Shown here one piece after another: positions 8,756-42,836 of a stretch of 64,000 bases of DNA; position 1 is the stretch's first letter; every line of letters begins with the position of its first letter. This stretch comes from Escherichia coli (GTDB lineage Bacteria > Pseudomonadota > Gammaproteobacteria > Enterobacterales > Enterobacteriaceae). The notes beneath the pieces are model-generated. The model ran no database searches. It saw only the letters and a program-made list of their open reading frames with translations, and was not told where the DNA came from. Made by a program: the position numbers and the translations under genes. Location of the stretch: assembly GCF_003334405.1 (NCBI RefSeq), contig NZ_QOWM01000004.1; one strand, given 5' to 3'.

Positions 8756-10264
<1,509 letters not shown>

Positions 10265-10301
10265 GGGACTTAGCCTGCGGCGGTTTTGTTTGGCTTCAGC
10301 A

Positions 10302-10390
10302 GCGGGTTGCGCTCCCTTAATGTGCCTCGCCATATAAATTGAATGGTGCAGGGAGCGCGCAGGGGGCGGCCAATCGCCGCCGCCCCCTGC
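10302..10390 (+). terminator. GC-rich stem-loops downstream of putP (probable terminator / structured element)
   Basis: Inverted repeat agggggcggc-caatc-gccgccccct plus gcgctccc...gggagcgc about 40-125 nt after putP stop; no clean T-tract so terminator role uncertain. Confidence 0.4.
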
Positions 10391-10564
10391 TGTCCCGGCC
10401 TTCGGGGAACGCTTCAGCGATTTTGACGCCACCAACACCCGAGCTGTTATTATGTTCCGGGCAAAAAGTTAGATTTGATAATCGCGGATGGACGAAATTG
10501 CTTGATACACCCGCTTATCAGTTTTACATGGAAGCTCTGATGCATTGAGTCTGGACAGTTTTGT

Positions 10565-10598
10565 CGGCTGGATACGGCGTTTACGCGGCATCCGGCAA
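10565..10598. repeat. REP (repetitive extragenic palindrome) element
   Basis: ggctggatacggcgtttacgcggcatccggcaag matches the GCCGGATGCGGCGT-type REP consensus. Confidence 0.7.
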
Positions 10599-10729
10599 GA
10601 ACACATGGTTCTTTGCAAACAATCCCATCTTTCTACCCTGGAATAATCGTTTATATCCCTTGGCATTACCTCTCTTTGTTTACATTCCAACATCATTTTA
10701 TAAACATTCCGCTTGTGTTTTTCTTTGCC

Positions 10730-10749
10730 GTAATGATAATCGCTATCAC
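10730..10749. promoter_or_regulatory. Fur box upstream of efeU
   Basis: gtaatgataatcgctatcac resembles the GATAATGATAATCATTATC Fur consensus, ~60 nt upstream of efeU ATG. Confidence 0.65.
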
Positions 10750-10806
10750 TGCGATTTACTTTTCTTTGCATAGATTGACTCAGAAAAACGTTTAAGGGTG
10801 GGTGGC

Positions 10807-11637
10807 ATGTTTGTTCCGTTTCTCATTATGTTGCGCGAAGGACTTGAAGCCGCGCTGATTGTCAGTTTGATTGCCAGCTATCTTAAGCGTACCCAGCGAG
10901 GCCGATGGATTGGTGTGATGTGGATTGGCGTGTTGCTTGCCGCTGCGTTGTGCCTGGGCTTGGGTATCTTCATTAACGAAACCACCGGCGAATTTCCGCA
11001 AAAAGAACAGGAACTGTTTGAAGGTATCGTGGCGGTGATCGCCGTGGTGATCCTTACCTGGATGGTTTTCTGGATGCGCAAAGTGTCGCGCAACGTCAAA
11101 GTGCAACTGGAACAGGCAGTCGATAGCGCATTGCAGCGTGGAAATCATCATGGCTGGGCGCTGGTGATGATGGTCTTTTTTGCCGTTGCAAGGGAAGGGC
11201 TGGAGTCGGTCTTTTTCCTGCTGGCGGCATTTCAACAAGATGTCGGGATCTGGCCGCCGCTGGGTGCAATGCTCGGTCTTGCTACTGCCGTGGTGCTAGG
11301 CTTCCTGCTCTACTGGGGCGGTATTCGCCTCAATCTTGGTGCATTTTTTAAATGGACCAGCCTGTTTATTCTCTTCGTCGCCGCAGGGCTGGCAGCTGGT
11401 GCCATTCGCGCATTTCATGAAGCCGGATTGTGGAACCACTTTCAGGAAATCGCCTTCGATATGAGTGCGGTGCTCTCAACTCACTCGCTGTTTGGCACGC
11501 TGATGGAAGGGATTTTTGGCTATCAGGAAGCGCCGAGCGTCAGCGAAGTCGCCGTCTGGTTTATTTATCTCATCCCGGCGCTGGTGGCATTTGCTCTGCC
11601 ACCACGCGCAGGGGCGACAGCGTCTCGCTCCGCGTAA
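10807..11637 (+). CDS. efeU: EfeU, FTR1-family ferrous iron permease (intact reading frame, two REGLE motifs)
   Basis: ORF track 10798..11637 (GTG-extended); ATG at 10807 gives MFVPFLIMLREGLEAALIV...; second REGLES motif present; uninterrupted 276 aa. Confidence 0.93.
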   Translation: MFVPFLIMLREGLEAALIVSLIASYLKRTQRGRWIGVMWIGVLLAAALCLGLGIFINETTGEFPQKEQELFEGIVAVIAVVILTWMVFWMRKVSRNVKVQLEQAVDSALQRGNHHGWALVMMVFFAVAREGLESVFFLLAAFQQDVGIWPPLGAMLGLATAVVLGFLLYWGGIRLNLGAFFKWTSLFILFVAAGLAAGAIRAFHEAGLWNHFQEIAFDMSAVLSTHSLFGTLMEGIFGYQEAPSVSEVAVWFIYLIPALVAFALPPRAGATASRSA

Positions 11638-42786: not shown

Positions 42787-42804
42787 AAAACAACGAGCCA
42801 ATAA

Positions 42805-42836
42805 AAATACCGGCGTTATGCCGGTATTTTTTTACG
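42805..42836 (+). terminator. Rho-independent terminator-like hairpin between opgH and yceK
   Basis: accggcgttatgccggt hairpin followed by attttttt. Confidence 0.65.

Follow-up and report, generated by a model that had tools for sequence, protein, structure and literature searches.

The two GC-rich hairpins that follow putP in this Escherichia coli genome are, with very little room for doubt on sequence grounds, helices A and B, the front (5′) part of the repeat element TRIP1b, or partial RRS (replication risk sequence). TRIP1b has already been catalogued, so the feature is real but known. We think it probable that TRIP1b is an internally deleted copy of the TRIP1/RRS element that is decaying, a largely non-functional relic which may now serve as an incidental barrier to 3′ exonucleases for putP. 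We favor decay because four features of functional RRS are missing from this copy, because no gap peak is reported at the putP site, because TRIP1b cannot stand in for the two full RRS, and because independent decay variants are found at the locus.

Two abutting hairpins between putP and efeU

The window, that is, the whole stretch of 64,000 nucleotides analyzed here, contains a putP-efeU spacer of 542 nt with two abutting inverted repeats inside it. The landmarks of the locus are as follows.

8756 to 10264, + strand: putP coding sequence, the upstream gene, from the open reading frame list; identical to MG1655 b1015
10309 to 10317 and 10350 to 10358 (span 10309 to 10358), + strand: hairpin A, GCGCTCCCT/AGGGAGCGC, 9 bp with a 32-nt loop, from an inverted-repeat search and folds
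10359 to 10370 and 10379 to 10390 (span 10359 to 10390), + strand: hairpin B, GCAGGGGGCGGC/GCCGCCCCCTGC, a perfect 12-bp stem with the 8-nt loop CAATCGCC, from the inverted-repeat search
10566 to 10602, + strand: a single REP element, separate from TRIP1, from a partial Rfam naRNA4 match covering the first REP stem-loop
10729 to 10747, + strand: Fur-box-like site upstream of efeU, CGTAATGATAATCGCTATC, 15/19 to the consensus GATAATGATAATCATTATC
10807 to 11637, + strand: efeU coding sequence, the downstream gene, intact here, from the open reading frame list with the ATG at 10807

Over the 3356 nt that run from the putA end across putP and the spacer, the window and MG1655 show 0 mismatches, and all 542 nt of the spacer are the same in both. 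Within efeU, one extra G at 10912 relative to MG1655 gives an intact 276-aa EfeU; the MG1655 efeU is a frameshifted pseudogene.

A reading of this DNA from sequence only had reported GC-rich inverted repeats after putP, and both were located. Hairpin B stands far above chance: perfect hairpins with a stem of at least 12 bp and a loop of 3 to 10 nt occur twice in the 64-kb window, against an expectation of 0.02 derived from 100 first-order Markov simulations. The only other perfect 12-bp short-loop hairpin in the window, AAAAATACCGGC at 42803-42831 with a 5-nt loop, is probably an intrinsic terminator. The geometry of the putP repeats differs from that first description. The strong stem has 12 bp and an 8-nt loop rather than 11 bp and 5 nt; the 5-nt-loop register (GGGGGCGGC/GCCGCCGCC) is a slipped alternative that arises from the GCC repeats and carries one mismatch. 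The two hairpins are tandem and abutting instead of nested, and they do not follow putP immediately, the stop codon ending at 10264 and the structures beginning 41-45 nt beyond. The neighboring elements were placed correctly: the REP element announced some 180 nt downstream begins 176 nt past hairpin B, and the efeU Fur box corresponds to the Fur-box-like site listed above.

Folded as DNA, the segment comprising both hairpins reaches -30.4/-28.1 kcal/mol (z -5.5/-4.9) and hairpin B alone -17.5/-18.3 kcal/mol. The RNA folding energy, which had been proposed as a check, is -81.6 kcal/mol for 10255-10420 (z -2.8), with both hairpins present in the minimum free energy structure. Like an intrinsic terminator, TRIP1b is a stable GC-rich stem-loop shortly past a stop codon. 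Unlike one, it has no U/T-tract after either hairpin, and its 12-bp stem and 8-nt loop belong to a larger repeat. No T-tract follows hairpin B, where the tail reads TGTCCCGGCC, and the terminator scan was empty at 10300-10450, in agreement with the earlier view that this is not a textbook intrinsic terminator.

Dispersed palindromes of the REP/BIME type (and naRNA4) offer a second comparison. They too are GC-rich and extragenic, often lie in gene 3′ regions, can stabilize the mRNA upstream of them, and are found clustered, with copies direct or inverted, as TRIP1-like elements are in Citrobacter and Klebsiella. In sequence and size they are unrelated, a 35-nt single stem-loop against the seven-helix TRIP1 fold of about 270 nt. 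An Rfam search of the window region and three paralogous loci gave no match on the hairpins, REP-type or other. It returned only a sub-threshold REP (naRNA4), placed in the window at 10566-10602, where the match scores 28 bits (E 0.0095), under the gathering score.

Three further observations concern the spacer. Between TRIP1b and the REP element, at 10476-10484 / 10512-10520, there is an imperfect inverted repeat with 27-nt spacing, TGATAATCG / CGCTTATCA, whose arms resemble Fur-box half-sites. In some genomes PGAP calls a 100-aa 'hypothetical protein' (WP_001323669.1) at 10469-10771 on the minus strand; it overlaps the REP element and the efeU promoter/Fur box, and the call is probably spurious. 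E. coli O157:H7 SS52 has neither of the spacer types described below. Its putP and efeU are separated by a different insert, which contains a hypothetical gene of 1344 nt on the other strand and no TRIP1 copy.

The hairpins belong to TRIP1b, a partial RRS

The hairpins can be identified as TRIP1b because their coordinates match the published element exactly. TRIP1b was first listed by Rudd (1999, Res Microbiol 150:653). Li et al. (2024, Genes 15:236, PMC10888264) place it at NC_000913.3 1080855-1081000, 146 bp in length and 41 bp past the putP stop, and describe it as a partial form with an internal deletion of about 125 bp. With a window offset of 1070549, these coordinates are 10306-10451. 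RRS is TRIP1, and the authors of the RRS work count a 'third partial repeat' (Pham et al. 2023/2024, PMC10287960, PMC11194060). Independently of coordinates, the window copy aligns with TRIP1a and TRIP1c at both ends of the element (alignments A1/A2), and a family profile run with nhmmer matches 10289-10390 (E = 8.7e-22, 5′ part) and 10389-10455 (E = 1.4e-15, 3′ part). Compared with the TRIP1 repeats of Rudd 1999 and Li 2024, the window element is therefore the same object, no different in sequence. Three things are added here to the published description: 921 of 5426 complete genomes have a full-length allele at this locus, the junction of the deletion is mapped exactly, and TRIP1b is inverted relative to TRIP1a with respect to replication. 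The parts of the element are as follows.

10306 to 10451, + strand (the C-rich 'RRS-C' strand): TRIP1b, a 146-bp internally deleted TRIP1/RRS copy, from coordinates, alignments A1/A2 and nhmmer
10388 to 10393, no strand assigned: junction of a 126-nt internal deletion, between CCCCCTG and CTGTCCC, from alignment with the long putP-locus allele of strain 2014C-3011 (locus L007)
10391 to 10451, + strand: TRIP1b 3′ tail, with the orphaned 3′ half of helix C, GCGATTTTG, at 10417-10425, from alignments A1/A2/A3
10377 to 10396, − strand: remnant of the RRS G4 motif, with one G5 tract lost

The deletion took helices D, E, F and G, four of the seven, together with the 5′ partner strand of helix C. The window copy retains hairpins A and B and a 60-nt tail, and about 95 nt are left of the 222-bp RRS core. 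Its DNA fold energy is -36 kcal/mol, of which A and B alone give about -30, compared with -80 to -84 for TRIP1a. The G-quadruplex motif is affected as well. As published, it is the reverse complement of the hairpin B 3′ arm together with the CACCCCC that follows it. With the last G5 tract lost through the deletion, the minus strand reads GGGACAGCAGGGGGCGGCGG where the published motif is GGGGGTGCAGGGGGCGGCGG; the exact motif was not found in the window copy. G4Hunter gives this copy -1.36, against -1.8 to -2.8 for full copies.

The orientation of the copy is also distinct. The + strand of the window is the K-12 top strand (GC skew +0.030), which at 1.08 Mb, in the right replichore, makes it the lagging-strand template. 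Thus the G-rich strand of TRIP1b, the window minus strand, is the leading-strand template; TRIP1a is the opposite, with its G4 motif on the top strand. At 1.081 Mb, TRIP1b lies about 165 kb inside RRS-lysO (0.915 Mb), nearer dif, and has no symmetric partner.

A dispersed repeat family with a conserved fold

Part of the spacer recurs elsewhere in E. coli, at a median of three places per genome (BLAST of 5426 complete genomes). The sequence-only reading was right that the hairpins are real, unusually stable and not a textbook intrinsic terminator. It missed that they belong to a dispersed multi-copy repeat, so they are not a local putP/efeU device. The paralogues are in the dusC-yohP and aqpZ-lysO spacers, and hairpin A, hairpin B and the 3′ tail are common to all. 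In one of them hairpin B is changed on both arms with pairing kept (GGGGGAGGA/TCCTCCCCC). Orientation relative to the upstream gene varies: the MG1655 TRIP1c is inverted with respect to dusC, and TRIP1d with respect to alx. That TRIP1 is a 3′-UTR element always co-oriented with its upstream gene, a notion true of the first three copies examined, was refuted by these two.

The family extends well beyond E. coli. A pattern scan of 100,044 species genomes followed by nhmmer gave 112 matches, 79 of them distinct near-full-length copies, in about 10 enterobacterial genera (Escherichia, Citrobacter, Klebsiella, Raoultella, Enterobacter, Kluyvera, Pseudocitrobacter, Pseudescherichia, Pluralibacter), with more distant relatives in Pantoea and Rahnella. 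Near-identical TRIP1 also appeared on short contigs of metagenome-assembled genomes assigned to Sporobacter termitidis, Desulfacinum sp. and 'Proteobacteria bacterium' (loci L075, L022 and L042); these contigs are most likely mis-binned enterobacterial DNA.

The seven-helix structure was tested on a sequence-only MAFFT alignment (A3). Across the seven helices, 95.5% of alignment cells are paired, compared with 84.0% in shuffled alignments and 37-46% with slid partners. The covariation score is 0.348, compared with 0.145 for shuffled alignments, none of 500 of which reached the observed value, and 0.041-0.073 for slid partners. Changes on both sides occur at 31 of the 52 pairs in the 79-copy family. 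For the helix of hairpin B, 10 of 12 pairs show compensatory changes and 98.7% of cells are paired; for that of hairpin A (A3 columns 27-35/70-78) the figure is 5 of 9 pairs. Helix C lies at A3 columns 135-142/275-282. Although the published 222-bp RRS does not include the 5′ arm of hairpin A, this arm covaries with the 3′ arm, and the natural unit is thus probably the TRIP1 of about 270 nt rather than the 222-bp RRS.

This pattern of change bears on what kind of element TRIP1 is. A palindrome bound by a protein, such as a regulator controlling putP or efeU, would account for the perfect 12-bp dyad symmetry of hairpin B. We consider it very improbable. The family contains at least six different arm sequences with the pairing kept, the signature of a nucleic-acid fold and not of a sequence-specific protein site, and the same palindrome stands at unrelated loci. 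The regulatory sites that are known lie elsewhere, the Fur box at 10729-10747 and the PutA operators in the putA-putP control region.

The repeats could also be only a substrate for recombination, supplying dispersed homology for inversions and rearrangements with TRIP1a and TRIP1c while the hairpins have no role of their own. Such events do occur, five between TRIP1a and TRIP1b and five between TRIP1b and TRIP1c among 156 events in 6725 genomes (Li et al. 2024, PMC10888264), but ten in 6725 genomes is rare. Homology of this kind explains consequences and not the conserved fold, since compensatory changes mark selection on pairing, which homology does not need. We regard this explanation as unlikely.

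Other origins were considered and set aside. The long element had no match in a phage collection, and we saw no sign of phage origin. Only short open reading frames overlap the element, and the indels and stem-wise compensatory changes of the family fit structure rather than coding. Clean insertion in the manner of a MITE does not fit either, as the alleles with and without TRIP1 at both putP-efeU and alx-sstT differ by segment replacement, with differing flanks and no target-site duplication. In K-12 the alx-sstT spacer has GC-rich CCCTCTCCC...GGGGCGAGGGG repeats that are box C-like in look; in TRIP1d-bearing strains that segment is wholly swapped for one in which TRIP1 is inverted relative to alx.

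The stems are 93% Watson-Crick. Wobble amounts to 87 G:T and 48 A:C of 4024 cells, mostly at two or three positions, and the comparison of G:T with A:C as a test of the folding strand gave no clear strand asymmetry. The pattern is no less compatible with a fold of either DNA strand than with an RNA fold. As regards a structured non-coding RNA, there is no Rfam match; covariation is strong, but wobble is scarce and roughly symmetric.

G4-capable tracts are present only in the Escherichia, Klebsiella and Enterobacter types. The Citrobacter, Pseudescherichia and Pluralibacter subfamilies have none (G4Hunter about -1.0), and the Citrobacter type keeps every helix. Many genomes carry 6-13 TRIP1 copies, some as inverted or tandem pairs. 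Because compensatory changes are found in all helices, because there are subfamilies without G4 and because so many genomes hold 6-13 copies, we tentatively raise the possibility that the conserved and selected feature of TRIP1/RRS is the seven-helix fold, hairpin A included, rather than the G-quadruplex. TRIP1b might then be a natural separation-of-function allele: with A and B on the lagging-strand template and no G4, it could keep a weak ability to trigger gaps.

Alleles at the putP locus and the fate of putP transcripts

BLAST of the spacer against 5426 complete E. coli genomes found the K-12-type spacer form in 3563. By content of the locus, the short TRIP1b is present in about 2640 genomes and the long form in 921, and about 1860 have neither, making the short allele the commonest form in the species. 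Conservation of the palindrome among E. coli strains had been proposed as a check, and the answer is divided. The hairpin region is at least 99% identical within the species, over about 3150 genomes carrying the element; the third of genomes that have none at the locus do not share it. The identity is a case of low within-species divergence, in which constraint and recency are indistinguishable. Decay at the locus has happened more than once. The long-form TRIP1 at putP in APEC E956 (locus L125, 780-800) carries a 9-nt slippage deletion between repeated GCAGGG motifs, which removes the 3′ arm of hairpin A and is independent of the 126-nt deletion of the K-12 type.

The alleles differ in how putP could end. 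In the allele without TRIP1, the spacer measures 219 bp and putP is followed by a canonical hairpin and T-tract terminator (gcagagggcaatcagtgattgccctctgcgttttttctc). In the K-12-type spacer, the terminator scan found no hairpin-plus-T-tract terminator from putP to the efeU promoter. Because this spacer has no canonical terminator and putP transcripts must enter TRIP1b, its hairpins may form an incidental barrier to 3′ exonucleases that protects putP mRNA.

A stronger version makes TRIP1b an RNA element proper to the putP 3′ UTR, a barrier to 3′-to-5′ exonucleases and perhaps a site of U-tract-less or Rho-assisted termination, or a pause, that limits read-through into efeU. The element is in the sense strand and starts 41 nt past the putP stop, its RNA fold is stable with both hairpins in the structure, strains without TRIP1b have the canonical terminator that the K-12-type spacer lacks, and stable 3′ stem-loops such as REP elements are established protectors of bacterial mRNA. 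The wider family speaks against it. TRIP1 can face either way with respect to the gene before it and is spread across many genera and unrelated loci, and so was not shaped for putP. It also follows genes that already have a terminator: aqpZ has its own ahead of the TRIP1 copy. Taken with the variable orientation, this counts against any role devoted to terminating putP or insulating efeU. Almost all stem pairs are Watson-Crick, unlike those of most helices selected as RNA, and no T-tract follows the hairpin. As for mapped ends, the supplements of Adams 2021 list only a 5′-UTR end at 1079260 for putP, and TERMITe 2025 has no putP entry. A putP-specific RNA role is thus, in our judgment, a minority possibility.

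Comparison with functional RRS

The two full copies in E. coli, at lysO and dusC (about 270 nt), adopt their fold in single-stranded DNA; they stall synthesis of the lagging strand, and gaps are left behind after replication (Pham et al., PMC10287960, PMC11194060). Full RRS have the G4 motif GGGGGTGCAGGGGGCGGCGG on the lagging-strand template (Pham et al. 2024, PMC11194060), block Pol I, II and IV, and produce RecA/SSB-bound gaps of up to 2 kb (Pham et al. 2023/2024, PMC10287960, PMC11194060). They form an inverted pair about 650 kb either side of dif, flanking Ter (Pham et al. 2023/2024). Only two prominent RecA/SSB ssDNA peaks are reported, those at lysO and dusC, and deletion of both RRS-lysO and RRS-dusC is inviable without compensation (Pham et al., PMC10287960, PMC11194060). 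The authors' own genome search found no additional site with the G4 motif (Pham et al. 2024, PMC11194060).

The window copy is homologous to RRS-lysO and RRS-dusC and has the same GC-rich stem-loops, the 3′ arm of hairpin B lying within the G4 motif. It differs in lacking 126 nt of the core and the exact G4, and in having its G-rich strand as the leading-strand template. Four features of a functional RRS are thus missing: the complete 222-bp core, the G4 motif, the orientation of the G4 strand and a paired position flanking Ter. It also differs in that no gap peak is reported for it and in that it does not compensate for the loss of both full RRS. TRIP1b cannot replace two full RRS, because the double deletion is inviable although TRIP1b is still present.

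We therefore prefer decay. A full-length TRIP1/RRS adopts its multi-hairpin fold (with a G-quadruplex in the E. coli type) once single-stranded behind the replicative helicase, a mechanism that others have demonstrated by experiment for the lysO and dusC copies. The 126 nt missing from the window copy held four of seven helices, one strand of a fifth and a G-tract, and the copy is inverted as well; most likely, then, it is a largely non-functional relic.

Some observations pull the other way. The complementary RRS-C strand folds too, and when it serves as lagging-strand template, synthesis in vitro is still blocked in about 66% of encounters (Kusi-Appauh et al. 2026 preprint, PMC13308219). TRIP1b is oriented in this way, with A and B intact and very stable. 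A weak gap signal at the putP locus could be hidden in the published profiles, which use 10-kb windows, and the predominance of the short allele fits neutrality and also some retained use.

TRIP1b might on this account be a weak but working replication-risk element, in which A and B fold on the lagging-strand template, occasionally stall an Okazaki fragment and make a minor programmed gap site between the main RRS. Its + strand is that template, the DNA fold of A and B is strong (-30.4 kcal/mol, z -5.5), the RRS-C strand of the full element blocks in vitro at the rate just given, and this strand blocks Pol II at a non-G4 site (Pham et al. 2024, PMC11194060). We nevertheless consider such activity improbable: no more than two prominent peaks have been reported across the genome, loss of both full RRS is not rescued by TRIP1b, over half of the structured core is gone, and about a third of E. 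coli genomes have no copy at the putP locus.

For annotation, identification as TRIP1b removes a false lead: the palindromes are not a regulatory invention of putP or efeU, and their full-length relatives act on replication and chromosome topology. RRS elements are described as conditionally essential and have been proposed as topological relief valves (RRS literature). For the RRS field, the comparative data provide a modest new lead in that the hairpin architecture, and not only the G4, is conserved in evolution, and the putP copy is a ready-made truncated variant for asking which parts suffice.

Two observations on the arrangement of the family complete the analysis. Relative to replication, as judged by local GC skew, which is a noisy measure, 49 copies split 31 to 18. 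In Citrobacter, TRIP1/RRS-like copies form closely spaced inverted pairs about 50 nt apart (loci L011, L021, L037, L039, L040, L080, L087 and L112-L114). Klebsiella has tandem direct copies (K. pneumoniae locus L010, 1009-1305 and 1446-1742), and one K. pneumoniae chromosome has 13 matching places. In these two genera the pattern resembles that of a repeat present in many clustered copies, not of a two-copy device flanking Ter.
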